DNA from: Clostridia bacterium
Lineage (GTDB): Bacteria; Bacillota; Clostridia; Christensenellales; CAG-138
Assembly (NCBI GenBank): GCA_045652385.1
Contig: JAZRUD010000056.1
Location: forward strand, 1 to 32,786
Length of the DNA stretch: 32,786 nucleotides
Direction of reading: 5' to 3'
Shown here: positions 175-32,748 of the stretch, piece after piece
Numbering within the stretch: the first letter of the stretch is position 1
Layout: every line of letters starts with the position of its first letter
Notes under the pieces: model-generated
Told to the model about the DNA's origin: nothing
Seen by the model: the letters and a program-made list of their open reading frames with translations, nothing else
Databases searched by the model: none
Position numbers and translations under genes: made by a program

Positions 175-624
175 ATGAGAAAAACGGGAGACAAACAGAT
201 CCCGGCGGAGATGGCAGACGAAAAGCCGGCCGGAAAGAACGCGAGCCAGTCGAAAAAGAGATCGAAGGCAAAGAGACCGAATGAAAAGCTTTCGCCGGCA
301 TCGATTTACAGAAAGATGATCGCATTCGGGAAGACCTACCAGGTCGAAAAGGAGCAAGATTTCCTGGAAGCGGCGAGAATCTACGCGGAGGAGGCAGGTC
401 TGATAGACCAGATGCGGGACAAACTGGCGGAGGACGGGCTGACCGTTCTGAAGACCTACAAGACCGGTGACGTGGAAGTGGCCCACCCGCTGCTGAGCGA
501 GCTCCCGCGCCACGTGGAAAGCGCCAACAAGTGCCTGAGCACGATCGGGAACATGATCAGTGAGCGCGGGGCGAGAGTCGAGAAGGCGAAGCGCGACCTG
601 GACAAGTTCCGCATGAACGCGTGA
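175..624 (+). CDS. terS: Terminase small subunit (P27-like)
   Basis: 149 aa with a basic N-terminus, immediately upstream of terL and downstream of the HNH gene across the window ends. RBS gggagga lies before the ATG. The family call is from memory of P27-type terS proteins. Confidence 0.7.
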   Translation: MRKTGDKQIPAEMADEKPAGKNASQSKKRSKAKRPNEKLSPASIYRKMIAFGKTYQVEKEQDFLEAARIYAEEAGLIDQMRDKLAEDGLTVLKTYKTGDVEVAHPLLSELPRHVESANKCLSTIGNMISERGARVEKAKRDLDKFRMNA

Positions 625-715: not shown

Positions 716-2380
716 GTGGCCGTCGGGAAATGGATCAGGCTGCTGTATGACGTGATCCTCCAGGGGCTGACGGAGCACCGGTGGTATTACAGCCGGAAAC
801 GGGCCGAAAACGCGGTGCAGTTCATCGAGAGATACTGCCACCATTACAAGGGCCGCCTGGCGCCGCAGCGGATCAAGCTGAACCTGTGGGAACGGGCCAC
901 GATCGAGCTGATCTTCGGGATAGTCGACGACCGCGTGCGGCGGGTATTTGTTGAGGTATTCCTTGTCATCGGCCGGAAGCAGGGCAAGACGATTCTGTGC
1001 GCGGCCATCTGCACGTACCTGGCATACTGCGGGGAATACGGATCTGAGTGCTACGCACTCGCGCCGAAGATTGACCAGTCGGATCTGCTGTTCTCAGCGG
1101 TCGAGTATAACGTGCACGCGGAGCCGGAGCTGGACTCGATCACGCGAAGCACGAAGTACCGGGGCCTGTTCATCCAGGAGACGAACACGACCATCAAAAA
1201 GCTGGCGTTCTCCAGTAAAAAATCAGACGGTTATAACCCGATGTTCTGGAGCGCGGACGAGGTGGCCGCATGGCCCGGAGTGGCGGGCCTGCGGCAGTGG
1301 GAAGTCATGGTATCCGGTACCGGCGCACGTGAGGAGCCGCTGGGCATCGCCCTCAGCTCCGGCGGCTATGAGAACGAGGGACTGTTTGACGAGCTGATGA
1401 AGCGCGGCACGGCGTTCCTGATGGGGAACAGCCGGGAGAAGCACCTGCTGCCGATCCTGTACATGATCGACGATCCGGCAAAATGGGACAACCTGGACGA
1501 GCTGGAGAAGAGCCTGCCGGGCCTGGGTGAGAGCGTGAGCCGGGACTTCATCCGGAAAGAGATTGACGTCGCTCACGAATCCATCTCGAAAGAGATTGAG
1601 TTCAAGACAAAATACTGCAACCTGAAGCAGAACATCAGCACGGCCTGGCTTCGGGCGGAGGACATCGAGAAGGCCTTCGGGTGGCGGAAGCCGCTGGAGG
1701 AGATTCGCAATCATTACTGCGTGGTCGGCATCGACTTATCGCAGAGCACAGACCTGACCAGCGCGTGCCTGGTATGCGAGGCGGATGGCGTGCTGTGGGT
1801 GCACAGTCACTTCTGGCTGCCGAAGAACAGGCTGGCGGAAGCGACGAAACGCGACCAGATCCCGTATGAGATCTACATCAAAAAGGGCTTCCTGAGCCTC
1901 AGCGGTGAGGAGTTCATCAATAACGACGACGTGCTGGCCTGGTGCATGGACCTGGTGCGGAAGTACAAGGTATACCCGCTGATGGTCGGATATGACCGGT
2001 GGGGCAGCCAGGAGCTGGTGCAGAAGCTGAACGCGAAGAGCTTCAAGACCGACACCGTGACTCAGGGGTTTAACCTGAACAACGTTGAGGACACCTTTGA
2101 GGGGATGCTCAGGGAGGGGCGGATCCGGGACATGGACGACAACGACCTGCTGAAGATCCACATGGCGGACAGCGCCCAGCAGCAGGAAAGCAACACAGAG
2201 AACGCGCATCCGAGAAAGAAACTGGTGAAGCTGTCGAGCCGCGCACACGTAGACGGAATGGCGGCCATCCTGGACGCGATGGCCATGAGGCTATTCAAAT
2301 GGTCGGAGCTTGGGTCAAGGCTTGAGAACAAGGGCAAGCGGAAGAACGAGGCAGCGGAGGCCGGGGAGAGCGGAAGCTGA
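716..2380 (+). CDS. terL: Terminase large subunit (Terminase_1-like)
   Basis: 554 aa with a P-loop-like VIGRKQGKT and a nuclease-region VVGIDLSQSTD. It sits between terS and the portal gene. The start is uncertain: the frame is open from 617 and encodes terL-like residues upstream of the GTG at 716. Confidence 0.9.
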   Translation: MAVGKWIRLLYDVILQGLTEHRWYYSRKRAENAVQFIERYCHHYKGRLAPQRIKLNLWERATIELIFGIVDDRVRRVFVEVFLVIGRKQGKTILCAAICTYLAYCGEYGSECYALAPKIDQSDLLFSAVEYNVHAEPELDSITRSTKYRGLFIQETNTTIKKLAFSSKKSDGYNPMFWSADEVAAWPGVAGLRQWEVMVSGTGAREEPLGIALSSGGYENEGLFDELMKRGTAFLMGNSREKHLLPILYMIDDPAKWDNLDELEKSLPGLGESVSRDFIRKEIDVAHESISKEIEFKTKYCNLKQNISTAWLRAEDIEKAFGWRKPLEEIRNHYCVVGIDLSQSTDLTSACLVCEADGVLWVHSHFWLPKNRLAEATKRDQIPYEIYIKKGFLSLSGEEFINNDDVLAWCMDLVRKYKVYPLMVGYDRWGSQELVQKLNAKSFKTDTVTQGFNLNNVEDTFEGMLREGRIRDMDDNDLLKIHMADSAQQQESNTENAHPRKKLVKLSSRAHVDGMAAILDAMAMRLFKWSELGSRLENKGKRKNEAAEAGESGS

Positions 2381-3621
2381 TGACTGAAGCCGGCGCCGGA
2401 GAGCAGCTGAGCGGGAAGGTGAACAGTATGGGAATGTTTGAGAAGATCTTTGGCAAAAAGGACCAGACCGGGCAGATGAAAAACGCACAGGTCTTCCGGA
2501 TGCTGGAGGGATATACGCCGGTATTTACAACGTTTCAGGGCTCCGTGTATGAAAGCGAGCTGATCCGGGCAAGCCTGGACGCGTGGGGACGGCACGCGGC
2601 GAAGACAAAGCCGAATGTAAAGGGCAGCGCGCTTGAGGCGCTGAAGAACAGGCTGAAGGTCAGGCCGAACTCGTTCCAGGAGTGGAGCAAGTTCCTCTAC
2701 CAGACAGCCACCGTGCTGGGCGCCAGGAACAACGCCTTCATCGTGAAGACACGGGAGGAAAGCGACGGGACGACGAACGGGATTATCGGGATCGTTCCGG
2801 AAAGCTGGCAGATGATCGAATATAACAACGAGCCATGGATCCGGTTTTTCCTGTCAAACGGGAAACGGAGGGCCGAACGGCTGGCGGACGTCGGGATCAT
2901 GACGCGGTTCCAGTACAGGAGCGAGCTTTTCGGGGAGGACAACGAGGCGCTCAGGCCCGTGCTGGATCTGATCGGGATGCAGCGGCAGGGAATCAACGAG
3001 GGAATCAAAAACGGAGCCAGCTACCGGTTCAGCGCGCAGAGCGACAACTGGGCCAGCGATGAGGACCTGGCCGCGGAGATGGAGCGGTTCAACAAGTTTA
3101 CCTTCGGGAACAAAAAGGGATCCGGGGGCGTGATCCTTTTTCCGAACACGTACAACAACGTCACCCAGCTGAAGCAGGAGGGGTACAAGATCGACGCGGA
3201 TCAGCAGAACCACATCCGCGAAAACGTGTTCAACTACTTCGGCGTGAACGAGAATATCCTGCAAAACAAGGCCTTCGGCGACGAGTGGCTGGCCTTCTAT
3301 GAGGGATTTGTCGAATGGTTCGCGATTCAGCTCGGTGAAGTGATCAGCGGGATGCTGTACACAGACCGGGAGAGGGTCAGCTATCAGAACCAGGTATTTT
3401 TCACCAGCAACCGGCTGCAGTACATGAGCAACGCAGACAAGCTGAACGCGGTGACGCAGCTGGGGGACCGGGGACTGGCGACGCGGAACGAGCTGAGGGA
3501 GATCCTGAACCTGGAGCCGCTGCCGGCGCCGTTCGGGGATCAGATCCCGGCGCGCGGCGAGTATTACGACGTGACGAACCCGCCGGACGGAAAGACCGGG
3601 GACGGGACGAATGATGAATGA
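2380..3621 (+). CDS. Portal protein (HK97 family)
   Basis: 413 aa, located after terL and before the prohead protease. Its start overlaps the terL stop by 1 nt. Confidence 0.88.
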   Translation: MTEAGAGEQLSGKVNSMGMFEKIFGKKDQTGQMKNAQVFRMLEGYTPVFTTFQGSVYESELIRASLDAWGRHAAKTKPNVKGSALEALKNRLKVRPNSFQEWSKFLYQTATVLGARNNAFIVKTREESDGTTNGIIGIVPESWQMIEYNNEPWIRFFLSNGKRRAERLADVGIMTRFQYRSELFGEDNEALRPVLDLIGMQRQGINEGIKNGASYRFSAQSDNWASDEDLAAEMERFNKFTFGNKKGSGGVILFPNTYNNVTQLKQEGYKIDADQQNHIRENVFNYFGVNENILQNKAFGDEWLAFYEGFVEWFAIQLGEVISGMLYTDRERVSYQNQVFFTSNRLQYMSNADKLNAVTQLGDRGLATRNELREILNLEPLPAPFGDQIPARGEYYDVTNPPDGKTGDGTNDE

Positions 3622-3659
3622 TGATGATTCGTACAGACGAAACGAGGAGGGAAGCGGAA

Positions 3660-4292
3660 ATGCCGGTAAATGTGAAGGACCGGGAATACAGGATGATCAA
3701 CGTGGCCGAACTCGAGGTGCGGGAAGCGGACGACGGGAAGAAGATCGTCGAAGGCTACGCGACGACATTCGACCAGGAGTACGAGCTGTGGGGAAGCGAA
3801 CGGTACAGAGTGCTCGAGAGCATTGGGCGGAACGCGTTCGACAAGGCGGACATGCGGGACGTGATCATGCAGTACGACCATGAGGGCCGGGTGTTCGCAA
3901 GGCTGAGCAACGGCACCCTGGAGCTGAAGGCAGATGATCACGGGCTGAAGATCCACGCGGATCTGGGCGGCACCGAGATCGGCAGGCAGCTGTACGAGGA
4001 GATCAGGGGCGGGTATACCACCCGGATGAGCTTCGGGTTCTCCGTAGGGAAGGAAGAGAGAACCGAGGAGCGGGACGAGGTGAAGGACACCGTAACGGTG
4101 CACCGGAAGATCACACAGATCAAAAAACTTTATGACGTTTCTGCCGTGTCGCTGCCAGCTAACGACGCGACTGAAATATCCGCACGGAACATCGGCGAGG
4201 GAGTGATCGCCGAAGTGATGCAGGAGCTGCAGGCCATCGAGGCCCGGAAGCGGGAGAAGGAAAAGATCACTCTGATGGCAGAGATGATCTGA
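3660..4292 (+). CDS. Prohead maturation protease (HK97 / S78 family)
   Basis: Motifs IVEGYATTF, MQYDHEG (His) and RMSFGFSV (Ser). The strong RBS gaggaggg 8 nt before ATG 3660 is preferred over the ORF-track start at 3618. Confidence 0.85.
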   Translation: MPVNVKDREYRMINVAELEVREADDGKKIVEGYATTFDQEYELWGSERYRVLESIGRNAFDKADMRDVIMQYDHEGRVFARLSNGTLELKADDHGLKIHADLGGTEIGRQLYEEIRGGYTTRMSFGFSVGKEERTEERDEVKDTVTVHRKITQIKKLYDVSAVSLPANDATEISARNIGEGVIAEVMQELQAIEARKREKEKITLMAEMI

Positions 4293-4359
4293 CAGGACCG
4301 GCAGAGGCCGGGAGAAGGGCGACGGGAAAACCGGAGCCGGAAAGAAAGGAGTTTAAACC

Positions 4360-5514
4360 ATGAAGTACAAGACCATGAAAGAGATCGAGACCCGCAAGGC
4401 CGAGATCCTGCAGGAGATGGAGCAGGAAGGCGCGGATCTGGAAGCCCTGAAGAGGGAAATGGACGAGCTGAGGACGAACGCGGATCAGATCCGCCAGGCC
4501 GCAGCGACCGCGGAGGAGACCCGCAAGGCCATCGCCAGCGGCGCGGCCGGCATCACCGTGGGCGAGACCCGGAAGGCTGAGCAGACCGCGAAGACCGTGG
4601 ACGAGATCCGCGGGAGCGAGGAGTACGTGCAGGCGTTCGCCCGTTATCTGATCAGCGAGGATCCGCGCGAATGCCGCGCCCTGCTGACGAGCAACGCGAC
4701 CTCGGGCGGCCAGCTGCCCGTGCCCACCCTGGTGGACACCATTATCCGCACGGAGTGGGAGAAGGACGAGATCCTGAGCCGCGTACGCAAGACCAGCTTC
4801 CGCGGGAACCTGAAGGTACCGTTCGAGCGCGCGGCGGATCCGGCCTACGAGCACGAGGAAGGCACGACCGCGATCACCGAGGAAGACCTGACCCTGGGCG
4901 TCGTCGAGCTGAAGCCGAAGAACATCAAGAAGTTCATCCGGCTGTCCGACGAAATCGTCGCGATCGGCGGCGAGCCGCTGGTCAGCTATGTCTACCGTGA
5001 GCTGGCCCATCAGATCATCAAGCTGCTGAGCAAGAAGGCCATCACGGCTGTCGCCGCCGCGGGCACCAGCCATACCGGCAGCGCCATCGGCATCCCGAAG
5101 ATCGAGGGATCGCCGCATCTTTGCGTCGTCGTGGACGCGGAGGCCGAGCTGACCGACGAGGCGGAGAACATCGTCGTGATCATCAACCGCAAGACCGCCG
5201 CAGCCTTCCACGCGGCCCGGGTTGCCGGGAACTTCTCGGTGGATCCGTATGACGGCCTGACCGTGCTGTACACCAGCGCGCTGCCGGCGTACTCCAGCGC
5301 GGAGGGCAACGCCGTGTGGATGATCGTCGGCGACCTCGACGGCCTGCAGGTGAACTATCCCGAAGGCGAGGGCATCGTCACCAAGTATGACGACGTGACC
5401 GAAGCCGAGGCCGACATGGTCAAGGTGCACGGCCGCCAGTACGCCGGTTACGGCGTGACCGGCCCCGGACGCTTCTGCAACGTGAAGAAGGCCAGCGGCG
5501 GCGGCACGACCTGA
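4360..5514 (+). CDS. Major capsid protein (HK97 fold) with an N-terminal coiled-coil delta domain
   Basis: 384 aa with a charged helical N-terminal region of about 100 aa, followed by a capsid body. It follows the protease, has RBS aaaggag, and ends ...KKASGGGTT. Confidence 0.9.
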   Translation: MKYKTMKEIETRKAEILQEMEQEGADLEALKREMDELRTNADQIRQAAATAEETRKAIASGAAGITVGETRKAEQTAKTVDEIRGSEEYVQAFARYLISEDPRECRALLTSNATSGGQLPVPTLVDTIIRTEWEKDEILSRVRKTSFRGNLKVPFERAADPAYEHEEGTTAITEEDLTLGVVELKPKNIKKFIRLSDEIVAIGGEPLVSYVYRELAHQIIKLLSKKAITAVAAAGTSHTGSAIGIPKIEGSPHLCVVVDAEAELTDEAENIVVIINRKTAAAFHAARVAGNFSVDPYDGLTVLYTSALPAYSSAEGNAVWMIVGDLDGLQVNYPEGEGIVTKYDDVTEAEADMVKVHGRQYAGYGVTGPGRFCNVKKASGGGTT

Positions 5515-5531
5515 TGACGGAGGGCTGACTG

Positions 5532-5798
5532 ATGAAGATTAAACTGATCAGGGCAGCCAGGATCCGGCATAACGCCGGGGAGGTGGTGGACGCCTCCCCG
5601 GCGGAGGCCGGATATCTTATCTCGACCGGATGCGCCGTGGCTTTCACGGAGCCGAAGGCGAGGGAGATCCCGGAAATGGTAACCGCGGAGAACCCGGAGG
5701 CGGCGGAGGCCGCGGAGAACCCGGAGGAAACGGCGGCCGCGGAGACGCCGGAGAAGCCGAAGAGGCAGACGAGCCGGAGAACGGCGGCGAAGAAGTAA
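5532..5798 (+). CDS. Small head-module protein with an acidic ENPEE/AAA repeat tail and a basic C-terminus
   Basis: 88 aa with RBS ggaggg. The N-terminal ~45 aa (MKIKLIRAARIRHNAGEVVD...) resemble the small proteins that commonly follow capsid genes. The tail is ENPEAAEAAENPEETAAAETPEKPKRQTSRRTAAKK. Confidence 0.6.
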   Translation: MKIKLIRAARIRHNAGEVVDASPAEAGYLISTGCAVAFTEPKAREIPEMVTAENPEAAEAAENPEETAAAETPEKPKRQTSRRTAAKK

Positions 5799-5953
5799 AG
5801 CGGGACGCATGAAGAAGCTGCAGAACCCGGAGGAAACGGCAGCCGCCGAGAACCCGGAGGAAGCGGCGGCCGCGGAAACGCCGGAGAAGCCGAAGAGGCA
5901 GACGAGCCGGAGAACGGCGGCTAAGAAGTAAAGGGGGACGCATGAAGAAGCTG
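5688..5953 (+). repeat. Tandem duplication, 2 x 133 bp (5688-5820 and 5821-5953), with about 11 mismatches
   Basis: Direct alignment by eye. Each copy runs from the ENPEE repeat tail through the stop codon, the RBS and ATGAAGAAGCTG. Confidence 0.9.
5809..5931 (+). CDS. 40-aa chimeric ORF created by the duplication (MKKL + acidic/basic tail)
   Basis: It encodes MKKLQNPEETAAAENPEEAAAAETPEKPKRQTSRRTAAKK. It uses the duplicated RBS (aagcggga) and the first four codons of the downstream glycosyltransferase gene. Expression is unknown. Confidence 0.3.
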   Translation: MKKLQNPEETAAAENPEEAAAAETPEKPKRQTSRRTAAKK

Positions 5954-6559
5954 TTCAAGCTGATGATCGGTGTGCCGTGCACGGATTACATGCACGCGGA
6001 TTTCGTGAAGAGCCTCGTAAATCTGAACACGCGCATGATCCGCGAGGGGATCAGCTGCAAGGTGGAGATCATGGCCGGGACGCTGGTGTATTTCGCGAGA
6101 AACAGGCTGGCCTGCCGGGCGATCAACGAGGGATTCACACACCTGCTTTTCATCGATTCCGACATGGTTTTCGACGAGAGCACGGTGGAAGCGCTGAGAT
6201 TCAGCGGGAAGGACTTCGTATGCGGAGCCTTTCAGAGCCGGAGGCCGCCGTACGGCAGCTGCGTATTTACCAGCCTCAAGCCCCTTGAGAAGGTCAGGGA
6301 ATACGGGGCGGAGCCCTTCCGGGTGGAGGGATGCGGCATGGCCATGACCATGATCAGCACCGAGATCCTGAAAAGGGTGCAGGAGAAATATGGCAACTGC
6401 TTCGACCCTGAGACGCTGGACGGCGTCAGCTACGGCGAGGACCTGGCCTTCTGCTGGAGGGCGAAACAGACCGGAGCCGAGATCTGGTGCGAACCGACCG
6501 CGCGGGTCGGGCACATCGCGCATGTGCCGATATGGCCCGGAGAGGAGCCTGCGACATGA
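5942..6559 (+). CDS. GT-A fold glycosyltransferase-like protein (GT2-like)
   Basis: 205 aa with DxD motif LLFIDSDMVF and downstream acidic motif YGEDLAFCWRAKQTGAEIW, both typical of GT2 enzymes. RBS aaggggga. No signal peptide or TM segment. Confidence 0.72.
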   Translation: MKKLFKLMIGVPCTDYMHADFVKSLVNLNTRMIREGISCKVEIMAGTLVYFARNRLACRAINEGFTHLLFIDSDMVFDESTVEALRFSGKDFVCGAFQSRRPPYGSCVFTSLKPLEKVREYGAEPFRVEGCGMAMTMISTEILKRVQEKYGNCFDPETLDGVSYGEDLAFCWRAKQTGAEIWCEPTARVGHIAHVPIWPGEEPAT

Positions 6560-7269
6560 AGAAAATACTGATCTGCGCGCCGCTGAGGCAGGACGTGGAC
6601 ATATTTGAGGCATTCCAGGACGGGCTGGACCGGATGAGGATACCGGAGGGGTATCAGGCGGACCGGTACTGGGTCGTAAACGACTGCAGGGAGGTCATCC
6701 CGCACATCCGGGACGCGGAGTACGAATACCTGGAGACGGGGGAGGCCTACCGGAAGACGGGGAACGACCACCTGTGGAGCCTCGAGCTGATGCTGAAGAT
6801 GGGAGATCTCAGGAACAGGACGATCCGACGCATGCTGGACGGAGGATACGATTACTGGCTGAGCATCGACACCGACATCATCCCGGATCCGGGGACGCTG
6901 GAGACGCTGATCCGGGCAGACAAGGATATCGTAAGCGAGATCTTCTGGACGCAGGCGCCGGGCGGAGGATGGTGGTGCAACGCATGGATGCACGACCAGA
7001 GCGCGGGGATGCCGGAGGAATGGAAACGCCCGGGGCTTTACCGGTGCGGGATGACAGGGGCGCTGACGCTGGTCAGGCGCAGCGTATTCGAGGCCGGAGT
7101 GAGCTACGCGCAGATCCCGAACATTTATACGGCGCTGAGGGGGGAAGACCGGCACTTCTGCGTAAGAGCGGCGTGCGCGGGCTTCGAGCTTTGGGTGGAC
7201 AGCCACTGCCCGGCGAGGCACCTGTACACCCGGAAACTGTACGAGGAATACATGGCGGGGAGGACGTGA
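6556..7269 (+). CDS. Second GT-A fold glycosyltransferase-like protein
   Basis: 237 aa counted from ATG 6556, which forms an ATGA overlap with the upstream stop. DxD-like WLSIDTDIIP and RGEDRHFCVRAACAGFELW occur in the same order as in the preceding gene. Confidence 0.62.
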   Translation: MKKILICAPLRQDVDIFEAFQDGLDRMRIPEGYQADRYWVVNDCREVIPHIRDAEYEYLETGEAYRKTGNDHLWSLELMLKMGDLRNRTIRRMLDGGYDYWLSIDTDIIPDPGTLETLIRADKDIVSEIFWTQAPGGGWWCNAWMHDQSAGMPEEWKRPGLYRCGMTGALTLVRRSVFEAGVSYAQIPNIYTALRGEDRHFCVRAACAGFELWVDSHCPARHLYTRKLYEEYMAGRT

Positions 7270-7272
7270 AGC

Positions 7273-7596
7273 ATGTTCAGTGAGGTAAAGGACAGCCTGC
7301 CGGTCAGCGGGAACGGATACGACGGACAGATCATCCGGGAGATCCGCGCGGCGGTGCTGGACCTGACAACGAGCACCGAGATCCGGCTGCCGGGCGCGGT
7401 TGACATCACGCGGGACGAGGAAACCGGGGTGATCACGGACAACAGCACGATCCGGGACGACCTGGTGATCGCGGCGATCGCGACCTGGTGCAACATGCGG
7501 ATCGGAAACCCGCCGAATTACGAAAACCTGCTGAAGGCCTACGAAAGCCTGAAGGGGCAGATGAGGCTGAGCAGGAGCTACGGCGGACAGGGGTGA
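7273..7596 (+). CDS. Head-tail connector protein (gp6-like)
   Basis: 107 aa in the first position of the neck block. The helical pattern ...DDLVIAAIATWCNMRIGNPPNYENLLKAYESLK... is typical of Phage_connect_1-type proteins. Confidence 0.65.
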   Translation: MFSEVKDSLPVSGNGYDGQIIREIRAAVLDLTTSTEIRLPGAVDITRDEETGVITDNSTIRDDLVIAAIATWCNMRIGNPPNYENLLKAYESLKGQMRLSRSYGGQG

Positions 7597-7600
7597 GACG

Positions 7601-8014
7601 ATGAGACGGATGATCACTGTCACGCTGATCAGCTTCCGGCCGGACGCGCACGAGGTGGGCGAGGACCCGGTCGACCGGCAGAGAGACGTCAGGGCGCAGG
7701 AGATGAGCCTGAACCTGTACGACAGAACCGAGGCCGGCGGGCAGGGACTGAGCCCGGAGGCGAAGCTGCTGATCCCGTACGACAGGGACTACGAGGGGGA
7801 GCGCGAGCTGATATACAACGGCGAGCGCTGGACGGTTATGGACGCCGACCCCTACAAGGACTGGAACGGCGTGATCCTGAGGATCCGCAGGAAGAAGGGG
7901 AACAGCGGGAGCATGCAAGCGGCGGAGGGACCGGAGGATACCGGCGGGAGCCCGGAAGCGGCGGAGGGACCGGAGGATACCGGCGGGAGCGGAACCGCGC
8001 AGGAGGTGGGCTAA
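7601..8014 (+). CDS. Head closure / head-tail adaptor protein with a repeat-extended C-terminus
   Basis: 137 aa. The core ...ELIYNGERWTVMDADPYKDWNGVILRIRRK fits head-closure proteins. The C-terminus carries AAEGPEDTGGS twice. Confidence 0.6.
   Translation: MRRMITVTLISFRPDAHEVGEDPVDRQRDVRAQEMSLNLYDRTEAGGQGLSPEAKLLIPYDRDYEGERELIYNGERWTVMDADPYKDWNGVILRIRRKKGNSGSMQAAEGPEDTGGSPEAAEGPEDTGGSGTAQEVG
7919..7990 (+). repeat. Tandem repeat with 39-bp period, 33/33 identical core
   Basis: gcggcggagggaccggaggataccggcgggagc occurs at 7919-7951 and again at 7958-7990. Confidence 0.9.
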
Positions 8015-8380
8015 ATGCCTGAGGAATACACGGAGCTCATGACCGCCATGAAGGCGCTGACACAACAGGCAGCGACCGGAGAAATCAGACTGCCGATGGC
8101 GGAGGACGGATGGAACACGCGGCCGGACGAGGACAGCTGGGGAGAGATCCGGCTGGAATTCGAGGCGGGGGATCTGAACGGAGACGGACGGAAAACCCGG
8201 AGGGCCTACGAGGGGAGCGTGGATCTGTACAGCCGGAGGCGCAGCGGATGCGGATGGAAAGAGCTGATCGAGGAGACGCTGGAGAACATCTGCGGAGAAT
8301 GCTGGGGGCTGAACTGGCACGGATATGAGAGGGAAACCTCTCTTTTCCACTGGGAATGGGTCTTTCAGGTGGAGGAGTAA
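8015..8380 (+). CDS. Hypothetical neck-region protein
   Basis: 121 aa, tightly packed between the adaptor and the HK97 gp10-like gene. No family recognised. Confidence 0.5.
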   Translation: MPEEYTELMTAMKALTQQAATGEIRLPMAEDGWNTRPDEDSWGEIRLEFEAGDLNGDGRKTRRAYEGSVDLYSRRRSGCGWKELIEETLENICGECWGLNWHGYERETSLFHWEWVFQVEE

Positions 8381-8381
8381 G

Positions 8382-8966
8382 ATGGCATTTTCAATTCAGT
8401 GGGATGGCGCGGCAGAGCTGATGAAAAAGATGGATCAGCTGCCGGAGAAGGCCGACAAGGTGGCGGCCCAGGCGCTCTACGAGGGCGCCAAGGTAATGGC
8501 TGACGAGGTCAGCCGGGCGATCGGGAAGATCTCAACGGAACCATTCAAGTACGCCTCGGGCGGAAAGAAAAGAAAGCCATCCCCGGAGGAGAAGGCGGCG
8601 CTCATGGAAGCGCGGCACGGCGTAGCCAAATTCACGCGAACCGGGACGAGCATCCAGACGAGCGTCGGATTCGACCAGGCCGGATACGTGGATGCGAATT
8701 TCACGCACATGAGCACATGGGCCAGGACAAACTACAAGGCAACCGGATCCGGAAGCGTAAGGAGCTCAAAGCTGAAAAGCCTGGGCAAAAAGGGCGGAAG
8801 GAACCAGAAGCCGGTTGGAGCCATCGCGAACGCGATCAACAGCGGCACGAGCTTCATGCAGAAGCAGCCCTTTATGAGAAAGACCTTTTCCCAGACAAGA
8901 CCGGCGGCTGAGGCCGCCATTGAGGACGGCATCCGGAAACGGGAGAATGAGCTGAGCCTCGAATAA
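8382..8966 (+). CDS. HK97 gp10-family tail-completion / neck protein
   Basis: 194 aa counted from ATG 8382. The N-terminus MAFSIQWDGAAELMKKMDQLPEKADKVAAQALYEGAKVMADEV matches the gp10-family pattern. It lies before the major tail gene. Confidence 0.65.
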   Translation: MAFSIQWDGAAELMKKMDQLPEKADKVAAQALYEGAKVMADEVSRAIGKISTEPFKYASGGKKRKPSPEEKAALMEARHGVAKFTRTGTSIQTSVGFDQAGYVDANFTHMSTWARTNYKATGSGSVRSSKLKSLGKKGGRNQKPVGAIANAINSGTSFMQKQPFMRKTFSQTRPAAEAAIEDGIRKRENELSLE

Positions 8967-8987
8967 AAACAAGGAGGAGAACAAAAG

Positions 8988-9581
8988 ATGAGTTATGCAA
9001 ATGTCGGGATGATGTACCCCGTATTCGCGCCGCTCGTGAGCCATGAGGACGGGGCGATGCCCTCCTACGGCACCGGCCGCGTGATTCACGAGGCGAGGAC
9101 GGCCACCGTGACGAGGGAGTTCGGGGACAACCCGCTGCACGGCGACGACCGCATCGTGGACGACGACAACGGAATGACCGGGCTGCGGATCGAATTCGAG
9201 AGCACCGGCCTGGACGATGAGGACCGCGTGGCGCTTTTCGGCGAGGAAAGCGCGGGAACGACGCTCGGCGGGTACTGGGAAAGCGACAACGAGACCCCGT
9301 ACGGCGGATTCGCCTACATCCGGAAGATGCGCGGCGACGCCGGAAAGAAGTACGAGGTCTGGCTGGCGCTGAAGATCAAGTTCCAGGAGGCGACGCAGTC
9401 GACCAACACGCGCCAGGGCCAGATCAGCTGGGGAACCCCGACGATCACCGGCCGCGGCGCGAGCCTGGACGTGGACGGAACCGGCAAGGAACGCTTCCGC
9501 ATTCACCAGACCTTCGACAGCGTGGCAGCGGCGAAGAGCTGGATCAACACCATGCTGAACGTCAGCGCGGCGACGACCTGA
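8988..9581 (+). CDS. Major tail (tube) protein, phi13-like
   Basis: 197 aa with RBS aaggagga. It sits upstream of the chaperone pair and tape measure, and ends ...NVSAATT. Confidence 0.8.
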   Translation: MSYANVGMMYPVFAPLVSHEDGAMPSYGTGRVIHEARTATVTREFGDNPLHGDDRIVDDDNGMTGLRIEFESTGLDDEDRVALFGEESAGTTLGGYWESDNETPYGGFAYIRKMRGDAGKKYEVWLALKIKFQEATQSTNTRQGQISWGTPTITGRGASLDVDGTGKERFRIHQTFDSVAAAKSWINTMLNVSAATT

Positions 9582-9588
9582 TGAACAG

Positions 9589-9625
9589 AAAACAGCCGGA
9601 GAGTCTGAGGACCTCCGGCTGTTTT
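9589..9625 (+). terminator. Strong hairpin after the major tail gene (possible attenuating terminator)
   Basis: 13-bp stem aaaacagccggag / ctccggctgtttt with an 11-nt loop. The T-run is part of the descending arm. Confidence 0.55.
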
Positions 9626-9650
9626 CCTGTATCAGGAGAAAGGGAGAAAC

Positions 9651-10094
9651 ATGCAGGAACTGAAAATCGGCGGGAGGACGATCCCGCTTTTGTACAGCAC
9701 ATACGAGCTGATCGCGATTCAGAAGGAAATCGGGTGCACCGCGTTTCAGCTGAACGACGACGTATTCGGCGTGGAGAAAATCGACGAGGACGGGGAATGG
9801 GACCTGGAGAACCTGCGGTTCCGGGTGGCCATTGAGCCGGAGAGGACGGAGAAGCTGGGGAAGCTGATCCGGATCCTCGGGAACGCGGGACTCGAGGAAA
9901 ACGGGGAAAACCCGGACCTGACCGAAAAATGGATCCTGCGGAGGATGAAGCCGAGCATGATCCTCATTTACGCGGTGACCGTGATGAGCGTGATCAACGC
10001 GGGGAACAGCACAGAGGTCAAGCCCGAGAAGAACGGGGAACCCGTGGACGAGATCCTCGAGGAAGAAGAAGGAAAAAAACAGCAAGGGAACTGA
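9651..10094 (+). CDS. Tail assembly chaperone (gpG analogue)
   Basis: 147 aa, between the major tail gene and the tape measure. RBS aggagaaaggga. An A-run slippery site lies near the 3' end. Confidence 0.7.
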   Translation: MQELKIGGRTIPLLYSTYELIAIQKEIGCTAFQLNDDVFGVEKIDEDGEWDLENLRFRVAIEPERTEKLGKLIRILGNAGLEENGENPDLTEKWILRRMKPSMILIYAVTVMSVINAGNSTEVKPEKNGEPVDEILEEEEGKKQQGN

Positions 10095-10222
10095 CCTACC
10101 TGCGGGTGGTTTCCTACGGGCTGATCGCAGGAATGAACAGGAAAGAAATCGACAGAGCGAGGCCGGGCGAGGTGCTCGACCTGTACCAGTACAGGATGAT
10201 GTACGACATGGAACGGCGATAA
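9651..10222 (+). CDS. Tail assembly chaperone frameshift product (gpGT analogue)
   Basis: It joins frame 0 (9651-10079) to the -1 frame (10079-10222, stop taa). This is the conserved G/GT arrangement upstream of tape measure genes. Confidence 0.55.
10073..10079 (+). promoter_or_regulatory. -1 programmed ribosomal frameshift slippery heptamer A_AAA_AAA
   Basis: In the zero frame the sequence reads GGA AAA AAA CAG. The -1 frame is open from here to 10222 and encodes TARELTYLRVVSYGLIAG... Confidence 0.6.
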
Positions 10223-10234
10223 GGATGTGAGGGC

Positions 10235-13200
10235 ATGGCCACGAACGTAAAGATGGGCGCGGACGTCGGGAGCTTCCGGCAGGGACTGCAGCAGGCGAAG
10301 AGCGAGATCCGCACGCTGGACCAGCAGATGAAGAAGGTCGAAGCGACCTTCAAGGCGACCGGAAACGCGGAGCAGGCCATGAGCCAGAAGGCCCAGACGC
10401 TGAACAGCCGCATGGAGGCCCAGCAAAAGGCGGCGAAGGCCGCGGAGGCAGCCCTGAAGGCCATGACCGAGGCCGGGGTCGACCAGGCGAGCGAAGCGTA
10501 TCAGAAGATGACGCGGGAGCTGCTGGCGGCGGAGACCGGCATGATGGAGACCCAGGCCGCGATGAACGACCTGGCAAGCGGGACGGACAAGCTGGCAAAA
10601 AGCGCGGAGAACGCGGCGGGGAAGGCCGGGAACCTGAAGAGCCAGGTCAGCGAGATCGGCAAGCACATGAGCCTCGACCTCGTGGAGAAGGGCTTCACCA
10701 CCGTAGGCAACATGATGGAGCGGACCGGGCAGAAGGCCGTAAACCTCGGGAAGCAGCTGATGAACGTGTTCAGCCAGGTCGGCGTATGGGCGGACGACGT
10801 GAACACCCGGGCGGCATTCTGGGGCAAAACGGCGGAGGAGATTCAGCGCCTGGACGTGGCCACGCAGAAGGCGGATATAAGCACCGAGGATTACCTGGCG
10901 ATGCAGGATCAGGTTTTCCGGCGGACAAAGGACCTGAGCGCGGCGACAGAGCAGCAGATCCAGGATATGCTGGATCTGGGGCTTGTCCAGAGGGAGACCG
11001 GGAAGGCCGGCGATTTCTACGTTGCGACCTACGACAACGCCGAGGACGCGATGTGGAACATGCTGGAAGCCCTCGAGAGGATGCCGGACAGCGAGAGGAA
11101 AGTACGCCTGGCAAACGAGTACGCGTCGAAGAGCTGGCGGGAGCTGATGGTCCTGGCCGGGAAAGGGCGGGAAGCATTCAAGCTGGATTACGACAGCGCG
11201 CCCATCGTGAGCCAGGAGAGCCTCGACAACGCGCAGGAGATGCAGGACAACCTGGAGGAGCTGCAGAGGCAGTTTGAGCAGCTGAAACGCGAGGTGGTCG
11301 GGGATCTGGCGCCGAGCATCAGCGCGGCGGCACAGAATCTGGCGTCGGTATTCAGCGAGCTGAACAAATACCTGCAGAGCGAAGAGGGCAAGGAAAAGAT
11401 GTCCGAGCTCAACCAGGTGCTGACGGACCTTTTCACGGACATCACGAACATCAACCCGGAAGCCGTGGTGCAGACGGTCAAAGACACGATCGGCGGGATC
11501 CGGGACGCGTTCAAATGGATTTTCGACAATAAAGAGACCCTGAAGGGGATGCTGGGCGCGATCCTCGGCGCGTGGGGCGCGGTCAAGGTGGCCGGCACGG
11601 TATCGACCTTTATCAGCCTGATCAACAACCTGAAAGCCCTGCAGCGAAACCCGAACATCCCGATCAATCCGACCGTGCCGACGGGGCCGACGGGGACGGG
11701 AACCGGAACAGGGACGGGGACGGGCAGCGTAAATATCCTGAACTGGCCGAGCGCGATGATGGCAAACCCGGTGCCGGTATACGTGACGAACATGACGGGG
11801 CTGCCGACGGGGTCGCCGACGGGGTCCCCGACGGGATCACCGACGGGATCGCCGACAGTGCTGCCGCCGGGAGGATCGCCGACAGCGCTGCCGCCGGGAG
11901 GGAGTCCGGTATTACCGGTCATCTGGCCGACGGGGCTCGGCGGCGGAGCGGGGCAGAACCTGACAGGCGTCAACACGACGAACCTGACCGGAGGAGGGAA
12001 CGACCTCATCAAGCTGCCTCCGGGAAGCTACAGCATGACGGACGAGTTCGGACGTGCCATCGGACCGAACGGACAGCCGGTCGCGCCGAAGGTTGACGTA
12101 GGAACCGGAGGCAAAAGCCCGCTGAACGGGCTGAAGTGGGGCGTAGCTACGGCAGCCGGGCTCGCCGTGCTGTTCAAGAACGCACTGACGGAGCAGGGGA
12201 ACGACGATCTGTACAAAAGCGCCTGGGAAGACGCGGCGGGGCGTGCCGTATACGTGGACCTGGAAGGGAAAACGCACTATTACAGCCCGACAGGACCGGA
12301 GAAGCCGGGAGAGGGATCGGAAGACGCGATCATGCGTATCCTGCAGGGCATGAGCGAAAGCGGAGAAGTTCCGGCCGGGCTTTGGAAATATGACAGGACG
12401 AGGCTGGAGCAGATCTTCGGGGCCGGCGGTTTCTCGGTGACGACAGGAGAAGCGACAAGGCGCGGAGCCGGGGCGAACAGCACAAAAAAACAGACGACAG
12501 GGGAGTGGCTGAACGACCTGCAGATCTGGTACGACATCCTGAAGCAGGGGCAGGACAACCCGGAGCTGAAGGCGGGGGTCGACTGGTTCGAGGGATACAT
12601 GCAGCAGCAGTACGGCAAGGGAGCGGGCATTGAGGGAATCAAGGCCCACCTGGCCGGGCTCGGGTACCGGAGCGAAGACCTGGACTATCACATGCTGCCG
12701 GAGGACATACAGAGAATCATCCGGGATCACATTGAGCATCAGAACCAGCAGGCAGAGGCAGAGGCCGTGCGGAAGCTCGAAGAGCAGGTGGAAGAGGAGA
12801 ACGCGGAGGTCCGAAAGGCAACATACGAGGCCAACAAGGAAGCCTTCGACCAGAACGTGGAGAACGTCAGGCAGTGGTTCACGATGCTGAACAGCATGCC
12901 GGAGGACGCGACGTTCCGGCTCGGGGACGAGACGCTGGGACTGAAGGAGGCCTGGGAAAAGGCGACGAGGCAGGCACTGGGCAATTATCTGAAAAACGGG
13001 ACCGTGGACCTGATCATCAACCAGATGAAGGATCAGGGGTATTCAGACGAAGCCTTCGACGAGATGATCAGGATCCTGATGACGAAGGAGCCGAAACTGC
13101 CGGTGGAGATTGTACCGGACGCAGAGGACGCGCAGAAGAAGCTGAACGAAATGGGCCTGACCATGAACGTCGGCGTGATCATCGAGTCGGTCCGGCACGG

Positions 13201-13450
13201 AGGCGGCGGAGGAGGCCGCGGACAGGTCATGACGCCTTTTGCCAACGGGATCCCGTACGTGCCGTACGACATGCCGGCCTTCCTGCATAAGGGCGAGCGC
13301 GTGACGCCGGCCAGGGAGAACAGGACGTACAACGCGAACAGCCATCTGTACGTCGAGAACATGAACATGTCGAGCGGGATGGACGCGAAGGCGCTGGTCG
13401 ACATGATGGCCGCGCAGCAGCGGAGAACCGCGGCCGGGTTCGGGAGCTGA
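10235..13450 (+). CDS. Tape measure protein
   Basis: 1071 aa with an Ala/Gln/Glu-rich helical N-terminal part and a hydrophobic segment GMLGAILGAWGAVKVAGTVSTFISLI. It follows the chaperone pair, and the C-terminus carries FANGIPYVPYDMPAFLHKGERVTPA. Confidence 0.9.
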   Translation: MATNVKMGADVGSFRQGLQQAKSEIRTLDQQMKKVEATFKATGNAEQAMSQKAQTLNSRMEAQQKAAKAAEAALKAMTEAGVDQASEAYQKMTRELLAAETGMMETQAAMNDLASGTDKLAKSAENAAGKAGNLKSQVSEIGKHMSLDLVEKGFTTVGNMMERTGQKAVNLGKQLMNVFSQVGVWADDVNTRAAFWGKTAEEIQRLDVATQKADISTEDYLAMQDQVFRRTKDLSAATEQQIQDMLDLGLVQRETGKAGDFYVATYDNAEDAMWNMLEALERMPDSERKVRLANEYASKSWRELMVLAGKGREAFKLDYDSAPIVSQESLDNAQEMQDNLEELQRQFEQLKREVVGDLAPSISAAAQNLASVFSELNKYLQSEEGKEKMSELNQVLTDLFTDITNINPEAVVQTVKDTIGGIRDAFKWIFDNKETLKGMLGAILGAWGAVKVAGTVSTFISLINNLKALQRNPNIPINPTVPTGPTGTGTGTGTGTGSVNILNWPSAMMANPVPVYVTNMTGLPTGSPTGSPTGSPTGSPTVLPPGGSPTALPPGGSPVLPVIWPTGLGGGAGQNLTGVNTTNLTGGGNDLIKLPPGSYSMTDEFGRAIGPNGQPVAPKVDVGTGGKSPLNGLKWGVATAAGLAVLFKNALTEQGNDDLYKSAWEDAAGRAVYVDLEGKTHYYSPTGPEKPGEGSEDAIMRILQGMSESGEVPAGLWKYDRTRLEQIFGAGGFSVTTGEATRRGAGANSTKKQTTGEWLNDLQIWYDILKQGQDNPELKAGVDWFEGYMQQQYGKGAGIEGIKAHLAGLGYRSEDLDYHMLPEDIQRIIRDHIEHQNQQAEAEAVRKLEEQVEEENAEVRKATYEANKEAFDQNVENVRQWFTMLNSMPEDATFRLGDETLGLKEAWEKATRQALGNYLKNGTVDLIINQMKDQGYSDEAFDEMIRILMTKEPKLPVEIVPDAEDAQKKLNEMGLTMNVGVIIESVRHGGGGGGRGQVMTPFANGIPYVPYDMPAFLHKGERVTPARENRTYNANSHLYVENMNMSSGMDAKALVDMMAAQQRRTAAGFGS
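11678..11905 (+). repeat. In-frame low-complexity tandem repeats inside the tape measure gene
   Basis: Three repeat blocks: PTGPTG(TG)5 at 11678-11728, 4 x 12 bp ccgacgggNtcN (PTGS) at 11804-11851, and 2 x 27 bp (SPTxLPPGG) at 11852-11905. Confidence 0.85.
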
Positions 13451-13479: not shown

Positions 13480-14196
13480 ATGGCAAAAAGCTGGTTTGAG
13501 TGGAACGGGACACGCTGCGGGGACAAGCACCTGTGGACGGAAGGGGCCGCGCAGAAGATCCGCCCGGAGGAGAGGGCAGAGCATGTGACTATCCCGGGGC
13601 GGAGGGGCGACCTGACGAAAACCGAGGGCGAAAAGATCTACAACAGCTATATCCAGACCCTGACGATCATCACCGACACGCGGGGGCACGCGGACGAGGC
13701 GGAGAGGTGGCTGAGCGGCGAGGGATGGATCACCTTTTCAAGCGATCCGGAGAGAAAACAGCGCGCGCGGGTCATCGGCGCGGTGAGCCTTAACAGGTAC
13801 AGCCGAAACATGGACTACTGGAGCGGAGAAGTGCAGTTTTACTGCGACCCGGAGAAGGCGGCACTTACAGAGCCGGAGGACGTGACGCTGAACAGCGCCG
13901 GAACCGTCTTAAACGGCGGGGATTATCCGGCGCTGCCGAAGATCACCGTAACATGCCCGATCAACGACAGCGTGCTGATCACGGTGGGCGGGAAGGCATT
14001 CACGGTGGAGCTTGCGGAGACGGGCCTGAGCGGCTGCGTGATCGACAGCGCGGCGGAGATCGTGACAAGCCCGGACGGGACGGTGAACCTGACGGGGAGA
14101 AGCGACGGGGATTTCCCCGTTCTGCCAGCGGGGAGCAGCATGGTCAGCGGGGAATGGACCAAACTGGTGATTAAGAAAAGGGAGAGATACTTGTGA
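13480..14196 (+). CDS. Distal tail protein (Dit)
   Basis: 238 aa, directly after the tape measure. The N-terminus WFEWNGTRCGDKHLW...IPGRRGDL is typical of the siphovirus tail family. Confidence 0.78.
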   Translation: MAKSWFEWNGTRCGDKHLWTEGAAQKIRPEERAEHVTIPGRRGDLTKTEGEKIYNSYIQTLTIITDTRGHADEAERWLSGEGWITFSSDPERKQRARVIGAVSLNRYSRNMDYWSGEVQFYCDPEKAALTEPEDVTLNSAGTVLNGGDYPALPKITVTCPINDSVLITVGGKAFTVELAETGLSGCVIDSAAEIVTSPDGTVNLTGRSDGDFPVLPAGSSMVSGEWTKLVIKKRERYL

Positions 14197-19967: not shown

Positions 19968-20291
19968 ATGATCTTTATTCCTGGGACGACGGTCAACTGG
20001 TCGGCGCGGATCCACGCGGCGGCGGAGGAGCTGGACCGGGTGGTGCTCAGCTTCTGTGTGCAGGGCGCGGAGGTGCTGGTCAAGGCATACACGGAGTTTG
20101 AGGCGGACGAGGAGGAGGGCTGGGCGGACTTCACCGTGAGCCTCACGCAGGCGGAGAGCTTGCTTTTCCCGAACGCCGCGAGGATCGACGTGCAGGCCAA
20201 CGCCATGATGGACGACGACAGGTCCGCGACGGGGGTCGCGCAGATCCTGACGGACAGGCAGCTGCATCGGGAGGTGATGGGAAATGGCTGA
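19968..20291 (+). CDS. Hypothetical fibre-region protein
   Basis: 107 aa with RBS aaggggga. It overlaps the next gene by 8 nt. Confidence 0.55.
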   Translation: MIFIPGTTVNWSARIHAAAEELDRVVLSFCVQGAEVLVKAYTEFEADEEEGWADFTVSLTQAESLLFPNAARIDVQANAMMDDDRSATGVAQILTDRQLHREVMGNG

Positions 20292-20880
20292 TCTTGTTTT
20301 TGACCTGGTCGGAACGGCGGGAAGCATCGAGATGCAGATGGACCGGATCGGGCCGCGGGGCGTGGGCATCGCGAATGTGAAGCTTAACGACGACTACACC
20401 CTGACCGTGACGCTGACGGACGGGACGAGCTATACCACGGAGAGCATCCGGGGCGAGCAGGGGGACCCGGGTCAGCCTGGCGAGGACGGAGTATCTCCGA
20501 CTGTCACGGTGACCGACATTACAGGCGGGCACCGGGTCACCATCACGGACGCGACCGGGACGCATGTGGCGGACGTGATGGACGGAAGCAAGGGAGATCC
20601 GGGGGATCCCGGTCAGCCGGGCGAGGACGGCCATACGCCCGAGAAGGGCGTCGACTACTGGACGGCGGAGGATAAGGCGGAGATCGTGGAGGACGCGGCG
20701 GAGGCAGCTGCCGGCGACCTGATCGACGACACGGCCGGGGACGGCGACACCGACAAGGTGTGGAGCGCGGACAAGGCCGCGGAGGTTGCTTCGCAGTTAT
20801 CTTCTGCTTTACAAGTGAAAAAAATATTTGTTCGCCTTTACATTCCCACGCCATTGACGTATAATCCATTCACAACTTAA
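20284..20880 (+). CDS. Collagen-like repeat tail fibre protein, apparently C-terminally truncated or replaced
   Basis: G-X-Y runs GEQGDPGQPGEDG (20452-20490) and GSKGDPGDPGQPGEDG (20584-20631). Codon composition switches to AT-rich third positions at about 20787. The ORF ends 30 codons later, inside a promoter-like sequence. Confidence 0.72.
   Translation: MADLVFDLVGTAGSIEMQMDRIGPRGVGIANVKLNDDYTLTVTLTDGTSYTTESIRGEQGDPGQPGEDGVSPTVTVTDITGGHRVTITDATGTHVADVMDGSKGDPGDPGQPGEDGHTPEKGVDYWTAEDKAEIVEDAAEAAAGDLIDDTAGDGDTDKVWSADKAAEVASQLSSALQVKKIFVRLYIPTPLTYNPFTT
20837..20865 (+). promoter_or_regulatory. Sigma-A type promoter candidate for the tyrosine recombinase gene
   Basis: TTTACA, 17 nt, TATAAT. 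It lies in the last codons of the collagen-like ORF, 128 nt upstream of ATG 20993. Confidence 0.5.
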
Positions 20881-22022: not shown

Positions 22023-22271
22023 ATGGTCTGGATCTACTGGGTGATGGTTGTCATCGGCACAGCCGGGATTGTCTGGTATTTTACCGTAACATGGATGGAA
22101 AAACGACAGTCGCGCCCTCCCGATCTGGATCCTACTGACAAGGCTGTAATGAGTGAAAACCGATGTGTGTTTTGCCAGAACGTGATCCCGGAAGGAAGAA
22201 TTGTATGCCCGGATTGTGAGCGAAGGATCATGTCAGAAGCGCACGAGAGAGGGGGGAGATACCGTGATTAA
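22023..22271 (+). CDS. Membrane-anchored zinc-ribbon protein (lysis-cassette associated)
   Basis: 82 aa with RBS gggagg. An N-terminal TM helix (VWIYWVMVVIGTAGIVWYFTV) is followed by CVFC-x11-CPDC. The 3' end overlaps the endolysin start. Confidence 0.6.
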   Translation: MVWIYWVMVVIGTAGIVWYFTVTWMEKRQSRPPDLDPTDKAVMSENRCVFCQNVIPEGRIVCPDCERRIMSEAHERGGRYRD

Positions 22272-32427: not shown

Positions 32428-32748
32428 ATGGAAAACAAGGACAGAGATCAGGCGGTAGAGCCATTCTACGTATCGTGGAGATGGCGGAGGTGCCGTAGTG
32501 CCTATGCGAATTCAAAGGGGAATCTTTGCGAACGATGTCTGGCAAGAGGAATCATTGAGCCGGGAAGTAAGGAGAGACCGCTTGAAGTGCATCACAAGAT
32601 ACCATTGACAGTTGAAAACGTGAACGATCCGGAGATTAGCCTGAACTGGAACAATCTGGAATTGCTCTGTAAAACATGTCATGAACAAGAACGCAAGAGA
32701 AAGCCGCAAAGATGGACCATAGGCCCGGGCGGGAGAGTGACGATATAG
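32428..32748 (+). CDS. HNH endonuclease (terminase-associated)
   Basis: 106 aa with CERC ... EVHHKIPL ... NLELLCKTCH. It lies next to terS across the window junction. Confidence 0.85.
   Translation: MENKDRDQAVEPFYVSWRWRRCRSAYANSKGNLCERCLARGIIEPGSKERPLEVHHKIPLTVENVNDPEISLNWNNLELLCKTCHEQERKRKPQRWTIGPGGRVTI

Follow-up and report, generated by a model that had tools for sequence, protein, structure and literature searches.

Two GT-A glycosyltransferase genes in the head operon of a Clostridia siphophage: a candidate virion-glycosylation module with C-terminal Thr-Thr tags as predicted acceptors

Background

To our knowledge, the only phages shown to glycosylate their own particles with enzymes that they encode are a few mycobacteriophages, in which the modification shields the virions from antibodies. 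The mycobacteriophage glycans are reportedly O-linked at protein C termini, and the broader phage population is said to show little evidence of virion glycosylation. Capsid and tail-tube subunits of the Che8, Corndog and Myrna virions are described as glycosylated by phage-encoded glycosyltransferases, or GTs (Freeman et al. 2023, as cited in PMC12363180, PMC11256854 and PMC13445384). Here we consider two adjacent genes, GT1 (5942-6559, plus strand, 205 amino acids (aa)) and GT2 (6556-7269, plus strand, 237 aa), as a candidate module of this kind in a phage of Clostridia. They were found in contig JAZRUD010000056.1, the whole 32,786 nucleotides of which were analysed and are called the window below. 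The window is a 32.8-kb genome of a temperate HK97-like siphophage with 58.6% G+C.

The enzyme closest to both proteins, A197 (PDB 2C0N), comes from an archaeal virus, the Sulfolobus turreted icosahedral virus (STIV). It has been proposed to glycosylate the STIV major capsid protein, and its D151E mutant delays replication of the virus (PMC10551542). The acceptor of A197 is putative, as are the acceptors of GT1 and GT2. For the latter it is likely that the acceptor is a virion protein. Comparison of related loci also makes it plausible, and on balance our favoured view, that GT1 O-glycosylates C-terminal Thr-Thr tags and GT2 extends the glycan.

Fold and catalytic motifs of the two enzymes

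The initial annotation placed GT1 and GT2 between the genes of the major capsid protein and the head-tail connector. This is correct, but the capsid gene is separated from GT1 by the gene of an 88-aa protein (5532-5798, plus strand) and by a 133-bp tandem duplication. GT1 and GT2 are paralogous (27% identity, E 9e-10) and share an ATGA overlap at 6556-6559, the GT2 start codon beginning at 6556, just as had been noted. No promoter or terminator separating them from the structural genes had been seen, and indeed the region 4000-10500 contains no sigma-70-like promoters, while terminator-like matches in it are at chance level (5 found, 6.0 expected). The peak Kyte-Doolittle hydropathy in a 19-residue frame is 0.85 for GT1 and 0.79 for GT2, and therefore neither protein has a transmembrane (TM) segment, which agrees with the annotation.

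The DxD and GED motifs are present at the positions originally given. In GT1 they are D72-S73-D74 (6155-6163) and G165-E166-D167 (6434-6442), with a downstream histidine, His191 (6512-6514); in GT2 the corresponding residues are D105-T106-D107 (6868-6876), G196-E197-D198 (7141-7149) and His222 (7219-7221). The motif residues are invariant or nearly so in two 42-sequence alignments, one for each GT, with conservation far above chance; E197, D198 and H222 of GT2 are invariant. A broader alignment of 72 members of the GT1 family (28-45% identity) leaves no residues invariant but P12, R53, D72, D74, G132, E166, D167 and H191. A DxD motif, an ED pair and a C-terminal histidine form the catalytic signature of metal-dependent GT-A enzymes. 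The DxD motifs of the window GTs align with those of A197 and COLGALT1, and the alignment suggests catalytic or metal-binding roles for E166, D167 and H191.

Direct searches gave no match to a Pfam GT family above its threshold. GT1 had no match in Pfam. GT2 matched Anp1 (PF03452; CAZy family GT62) at 26.5 bits (E 5.4e-6, residues 82-134), below the curated gathering threshold of 28.8 bits. Neither protein matched Glycos_transf_2 (PF00535; CAZy family GT2, not to be confused with the gene GT2) at E<=1, and sequence searches of the PDB also stayed below threshold (A197, E 0.03; COLGALT1, E 0.014). Thus structure prediction and family profiles were needed.

The AlphaFold2 (AF2) model of GT1 has a predicted local distance difference test (pLDDT) score of 91 and a predicted template modelling (pTM) score of 0.89. 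A Foldseek search of the PDB with this model produced 188 matches at E<=1e-3 with GT-A enzymes leading. STIV A197 was the best match (1.4e-11), followed by the GT domains of LH3 and COLGALT1 at about 1e-8 and by ppGalNAc-T enzymes down to 1e-6. Among the models of BFVD, the matches are "GT-A type" proteins of uncultured phages (TM-score about 0.8). The GT2 model is of moderate quality (pLDDT 68, pTM 0.72); it matched COLGALT1 at 3.8e-9, and all of its top 50 matches are GT-A enzymes.

At the level of profiles, both proteins match phrog_1574, a PHROGs family of unknown function whose members include proteins of a cyanomyophage, a freshwater podophage and a Methanobacteriales virus. The E-value is 3e-25 for GT1 (residues 6-197 against positions 14-234 of the 240 in the profile) and 3.7e-7 for GT2. 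An exhaustive HMMER search with the GT1 family retrieved 5,589 clusters at 50% identity (E<=1e-3), 838 of them at E<=1e-10, nearly all of the members being single-domain proteins of about 200 aa. The GT1-family profile matches A197 over its full length (4e-9), yeast Mnn9 (7e-8) and, weakly, TarP (E 0.03). Among the 72 relatives of GT1, 47 match Pfam Anp1 at E<0.01, and 32 match Glycos_transf_2, weakly (best 2e-7). No close relative was found in GenBank phages, where the matches of GT1 have only 23-31% identity and GT2 has none.

Taken together, the models and profiles place both proteins, each predicted to form a single Rossmann-like alpha/beta/alpha domain of the nucleotide-sugar-binding type, among the GT-A glycosyltransferases, and we regard this predicted assignment as secure. 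The initial label was "GT2-like": its GT-A part stands, whereas the assignment to the CAZy GT2 family is loose, no Pfam GT threshold having been reached. The nearest relatives of the window GTs are STIV A197, the GT62 enzymes (Anp1/Mnn9) and GT25-type enzymes.

Conservation of gene order

About 120 related loci (L001-L125) were collected from IMG/VR, metagenome-assembled genomes (MAGs) of GTDB and ENA assemblies; among them are loci from yak rumen, uncultured Clostridia and MAGs of Lachnospiraceae. The initial annotation had proposed a survey of whether the homologues are consistently located between the capsid and connector genes, and in nearly all loci this is the case. There the GT1 homologue comes immediately after the capsid gene, or after the small gene where this lies in between, and the connector gene comes next. 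The order capsid-GT-connector is retained even where identity has dropped to 31-39% for GT1 and to 36-41% for the capsid. GT2 is present in most close relatives and missing in L031, L034-L037, L042 and L044, in which GT1 is immediately followed by the connector gene.

Some loci have other arrangements. In L063 and L066 the GT gene, together with a small gene, is directly upstream of the tail-tube gene instead, and in L051, L073 and L088 the GT resides in non-structural contexts. The GT of a Methanobacteriales virus lies within the structural block, and that of a cyanomyophage lies beside baseplate genes in the late region. In the T7-like phage MW202711 from GenBank the order is portal, scaffold, capsid, hypothetical gene, GT. 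This freshwater phage (MW202711.1, L136, positions 3655-5633) has a GT of the phrog_1574 family two genes past the capsid gene, and its capsid protein ends with ...RDLTTS. It hints that the association of capsid and GT genes reaches beyond siphophages.

Covariation of glycosyltransferase genes and Thr-Thr tags

The major capsid protein of the window (4360-5514, plus strand, 384 aa, HK97 fold; phrog_10, 2.7e-25; Pfam Phage_capsid, 6.1e-12) is a predicted acceptor. Its translation ends with ...KKASGGGTT, and the C-terminal extension ASGGGTT (5491-5511, plus strand) is a predicted O-glycosylation tag. The predicted second acceptor is the major tail (tube) protein (8988-9581, plus strand; phrog_88, 1.1e-17), which ends with ...NVSAATT (tag 9564-9578). 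Of some 20 late-region proteins in the window, three end in -TT, namely these two and a collagen-repeat protein.

For comparison between loci, a GT+ clade was defined by GT1 identity of at least 46%, all counts being made over non-redundant loci; loci were scored as lacking GTs within the fetched stretch of each contig. The capsids of the GT+ clade continue past the conserved ...F[VC]N[VI]KK or ...KP by four to eight small residues, the last two being Thr-Thr; examples are AAAVTT, SGGSTTTT and the ASGGGTT of the window. The tail tubes of the clade that end in -TT likewise do so on a short added extension. The terminal -TT is found on 36/40 capsids in the GT+ clade and on 0/14 in GT-lacking relatives (Fisher p 9e-10), and on 26/34 tail tubes of the clade compared with 1/10 in GT-lacking loci (Fisher p 3e-4), these tests ignoring phylogeny.

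Since shared ancestry is not accounted for in the Fisher tests, a separate capsid tree was built with the last 14 residues removed. In this tree two lineages without GTs, L105 and L112-L124, branch from within the GT+ clade at separate places, which amounts to two independent co-transitions of GT and tag. The cleanest control is L105. Its capsid is 63% identical to that of the window, and it has kept the small gene and the connector gene, but both GTs are absent. The L105 capsid stops at ...NVKKPS, and its tail tube stops at ...KANL, where the GT+ relatives continue with ...KANI[ST]xxxxTT. The initial suggestion that the C-terminal Thr-Thr ends may serve as acceptors is therefore supported by comparison, as -TT tracks the presence of GTs through two independent transitions.

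The relatives that have GT1 only (e.g. L037 and L042) keep -TT on both the capsid and the tail tube. Hence GT1 alone suffices for any process that depends on the tag, and GT2 plays an accessory part. This suggests that GT1 recognises the tag and GT2 acts second.

A number of observations weigh against glycosylation of the tags. The real support is that of two co-transitions, with a few exceptions, rather than that of the Fisher probabilities, and GTs of the loci scored as negative may be encoded elsewhere in their genomes. One of the exceptions, L045, has both GTs and a capsid ending with ...KPGA; another is L107, where the capsid ends with -GT; and the tail tubes of L012, L084 and L014 end with -TTEG or -TTA. 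In a more distant GT clade of about 30 loci the capsid ends with ...AFVKITK and has no tag. Thus the family as a whole needs no -TT tail on the capsid and must use other acceptors too. Tail-tube ends rich in Thr and Pro occur without a GT as well (...QPTT in L114). To this one should add the moderate quality of the GT2 model. Finally, no genes of nucleotide-sugar synthesis are present in the window, and thus the sugar donor must come from the host.

The Thr/Pro-rich tail-tube ends of the distant clade were also considered as evidence on the acceptor. They were dropped, as GT-lacking loci with the same type of tail tube end alike (...QPTT, ...PTAT).

The mechanism we propose is as follows. GT1 and GT2 would be soluble, metal-dependent GT-A enzymes made from the late virion operon alongside the structural proteins. 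In the infected cell GT1 would most likely move a sugar from a nucleotide-sugar donor onto a threonine hydroxyl of the C-terminal -TT tag, a putative acceptor that the major capsid and tail-tube proteins have in common. Most likely, GT2 would then add a second sugar or modify the second threonine. As an outcome, the two most abundant surface proteins of the virion would be coated with glycans. The acceptor residues and the order of action are predictions from sequence comparison. The initial proposal that these enzymes glycosylate structural proteins has gained comparative support, with glycosylation itself still a prediction. The pay-off may be, for example, shielding, stability, adhesion or avoidance in the gut or rumen.

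Alternative explanations

One possibility is that the GTs glycosylate some other component of the virion or of its assembly, such as the capsid at internal Ser/Thr residues, the basic-tailed 88-aa protein, a neck protein or the collagen-like fibre protein encoded at 20284-20880. The distant clade, which has a capsid-adjacent GT but a capsid without -TT, points in this direction, as does the presence of a small basic-tailed protein beside the GT in either gene order (L058, L060, L063, L079). Besides, the best structural matches of the enzymes include collagen glycosyltransferases, and the window encodes a collagen-repeat protein ending with -FTT. On the other hand, the 88-aa gene persists in GT-lacking relatives, and the collagen-like protein has no close relatives among GT+ contigs, nor are the GTs adjacent to its gene. 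Such acceptors would also leave unexplained why -TT covaries with the GTs on two different proteins, and we consider them rather unlikely. The same covariation has no explanation if the GTs modify polymers of the host envelope, such as teichoic acid, S-layer or capsule precursors, blocking superinfection or altering receptors in the manner of prophage TarP and Gtr. In favour of this, the phage is temperate, encoding both a tyrosine integrase and a serine recombinase, and the GT-A enzymes TarP and GtrB are among the weaker structural and profile matches (E 0.03 for TarP); moreover, GTs of gut phages have been interpreted as modifiers of the host envelope (PMC8008677). However, the GTs of the window are translationally coupled inside the late structural operon and have no promoter of their own, and thus would be silent in the lysogen. 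They have neither a membrane partner nor a TM segment, and more than 100 contigs, one of them from a T7-like phage, have the GT in this same place beside the capsid gene. GTs of lysogenic conversion, of the Gtr/TarP type, have a moron-like site, their own promoter, expression in the lysogen and membrane partners (GtrA/GtrC) or a wall-polymer acceptor; the window genes do not fit this pattern. Modification of the envelope is thus improbable.

Two further explanations seem very improbable to us. Some phages encode GTs that add sugars to hydroxymethylated bases (PMC13326640; bioRxiv 10.1101/2023.12.21.572611), and GT1 and GT2 might likewise glycosylate phage DNA, a base hypermodification directed against restriction. 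However, scanning of the window open reading frames (ORFs), about eight of which are unannotated, revealed no hydroxymethylase, TET-like or other base-modification gene. The GTs belong to the head module and not to the replication module, and their structural neighbours are protein- and glycan-directed GT-A enzymes. Alternatively, the proteins might be catalytically dead, having retained the GT fold for a structural or chaperone role in head assembly. They do occupy a position where decoration or assembly genes often lie. Yet the DxD, ED and His residues are invariant across diverged relatives, a pattern indicating selection for catalysis, which makes this last explanation hardly credible.

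Neighbouring genes and the rest of the phage genome

The 88-aa protein consists of a small N-terminal domain with weak matches to DUF7210 and DUF7302, an acidic linker rich in Pro, Glu and Ala, and a basic tail. Its gene is a conserved neighbour of the capsid gene and occurs in the GT-negative loci L105 and L113-L119; thus it is not GT-dependent. The acidic Pro-rich tail had initially been suggested as a target of the GTs. No link between the two was found, and the protein was rejected as a GT target or partner, because it persists without GTs.

The 133-bp tandem duplication (5689-5953, plus strand), identified by repeat search and alignment, consists of two copies with 92% identity to each other. 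It takes in the 3' end of the 88-aa gene, a 10-nucleotide spacer and the first 12 nucleotides of GT1, and it is absent from a 97%-identical relative, L134. Translation of the duplicated region reveals a 40-aa chimeric ORF (5809-5931, plus strand), in which the first four codons of GT1 (MKKL) run on into a duplicate of the 88-aa protein's acidic/basic tail. This ORF is probably a by-product of the duplication.

In the distant GT clade a protein of 57-61 aa with a basic tail of the ...KKTTRKK type follows the GT rather than precedes it (L058:5670-5846, L060:5684-5869, L063:6623-6796, L079:6618-6794). It resembles the tail of the window's 88-aa protein.

The collagen-like protein (20284-20880, 198 aa) contains a "collagen-flanked surface repeat" (Pfam CFSR, 2.1e-6) with a short collagen G-X-Y stretch on either side. 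Its -FTT end is the third -TT terminus of the late region. The IMG/VR scan produced no close homologues covering the C-terminus. This protein was considered as an acceptor on account of the COLGALT1 and LH3 matches and was set aside, having no conserved link to the GTs and no close IMG/VR homologues.

The late operon is situated on the plus strand, and the roles of its genes were assigned by matches to PHROGs profiles. It starts with the genes of a putative small terminase subunit (175-624, plus strand), the large terminase (716-2380, plus strand), the portal (2380-3621, plus strand) and the prohead protease (3618-4292, plus strand), followed by the capsid gene and the 88-aa gene. Downstream of the GTs, the module is bounded by the head-tail connector gene (7273-7596, plus strand; phrog_5223 and a weak match to Pfam Phage_connect_2). 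Neck proteins follow the connector. A head-closure/adaptor protein of 137 aa (7601-8014) has a duplicated acidic segment (AAEGPEDTGGSPEAAEGPEDTGGS) at its C-terminus, another low-complexity tail of a virion protein. The tail part of the operon continues past the tail-tube gene with the tape measure (10235-13450, plus strand), Dit (13480-14196, plus strand) and a 1,618-aa tail protein. In the middle of the tape-measure protein, around residues 490-540, there are simple repeats, (GT)n and (PTGS)n.

Of the two recombinases encoded in the window, one is a tyrosine integrase and the other a large serine recombinase; the coordinates listed for them are 20993-21976, 22201-22983 and 23603-25141 (-). 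The integrases are 14-17 kb away from the GT genes. The tyrosine integrase gene is placed between the tail/fibre genes and the gene of a lysin with NlpC/P60 and SH3 domains, which is an unusual site for an integrase. On circularisation, the HNH endonuclease gene at the right end of the window (32428-32748) adjoins the terminase genes at its left end (175-2380), which gives the window the appearance of an entire permuted genome, about 32.8 kb in length. Its two ends were found to share no exact repeat.

Implications and comparison with known systems

If the proposed function is true, virion glycosylation extends to abundant phages of anaerobic Clostridia of the gut and rumen and is carried out there by an unrelated enzyme family that had no assigned function. 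It would obey a simple acceptor rule, C-terminal Thr-Thr on both the capsid and the tail tube, and would give a function to phage proteins that are labelled "hypothetical" in their thousands. It would be relevant, too, to the interactions of phages with mucus and with the immune system in animals, and the two enzymes with their peptide tag could serve for the glyco-engineering of phage particles or of recombinant proteins. A broader and much more speculative idea is that the phrog_1574 family of minimal GT-A enzymes is a widespread, unrecognised system of virion glycosylation, that -TT-like C-terminal tags are portable "glyco-tags" of capsids and tail tubes, and that glycan-coated phages are common in gut, rumen and aquatic viromes; we advance it tentatively, as a possibility that is rather doubtful at present.

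By both sequence and structure, the known enzyme closest to GT1 and GT2 is the minimal GT-A protein A197 of STIV. It too has about 200 aa without additional domains, and its DxD and GED motifs line up with those of the window GTs, D167 of GT1 corresponding to D151 of A197. It differs in that the identity is only about 18% and the virus is an archaeal turrivirus with a double-jelly-roll capsid. The GT62 (Anp1/Mnn9) and GT25/LH3-type enzymes (COLGALT1, LH3) have the same GT-A fold and DxD...His metal site as the window GTs. Their substrates are side chains of proteins or glycans already linked to protein. In contrast to them, the window GTs have neither a membrane anchor nor a lysyl-hydroxylase partner.

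The initial annotation was not aware of a GT module in the head operon of a Firmicute phage, and a search of the literature outside subscription journals gave no description of such a module in Firmicute, gut or rumen phages. However, a precedent for the head block itself exists in mycobacteriophage Corndog, where the GT genes gp35-38 lie inside the head block, between the portal and protease genes. The Corndog gp35-38 and Che8 gp108-110 proteins showed no significant similarity to the window GTs (BLASTP E at least 0.08; at most 5.7 bits with hidden Markov models in an 11-sequence database). The systems differ in other respects as well. The hosts are uncultured rumen and gut Clostridia rather than Actinobacteria; the window has two minimal GT-A enzymes (205 and 237 aa) and no methyltransferase; and the position of its GTs is fixed between the capsid and connector genes. 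On the other hand, in Che8 and Corndog the acceptors are the two most abundant surface proteins, and the same is predicted from the genes of the window. The C-terminal dipeptides of the capsid and tail tube are -GS and -GS in Che8, -GS and -DS in Corndog, and -TT and -TT in the window, so that the tag of the latter is Thr-Thr instead of Gly/Asp-Ser. By analogy, the module of the window would parallel those of Che8 and Corndog with unrelated enzymes and a similar acceptor logic.

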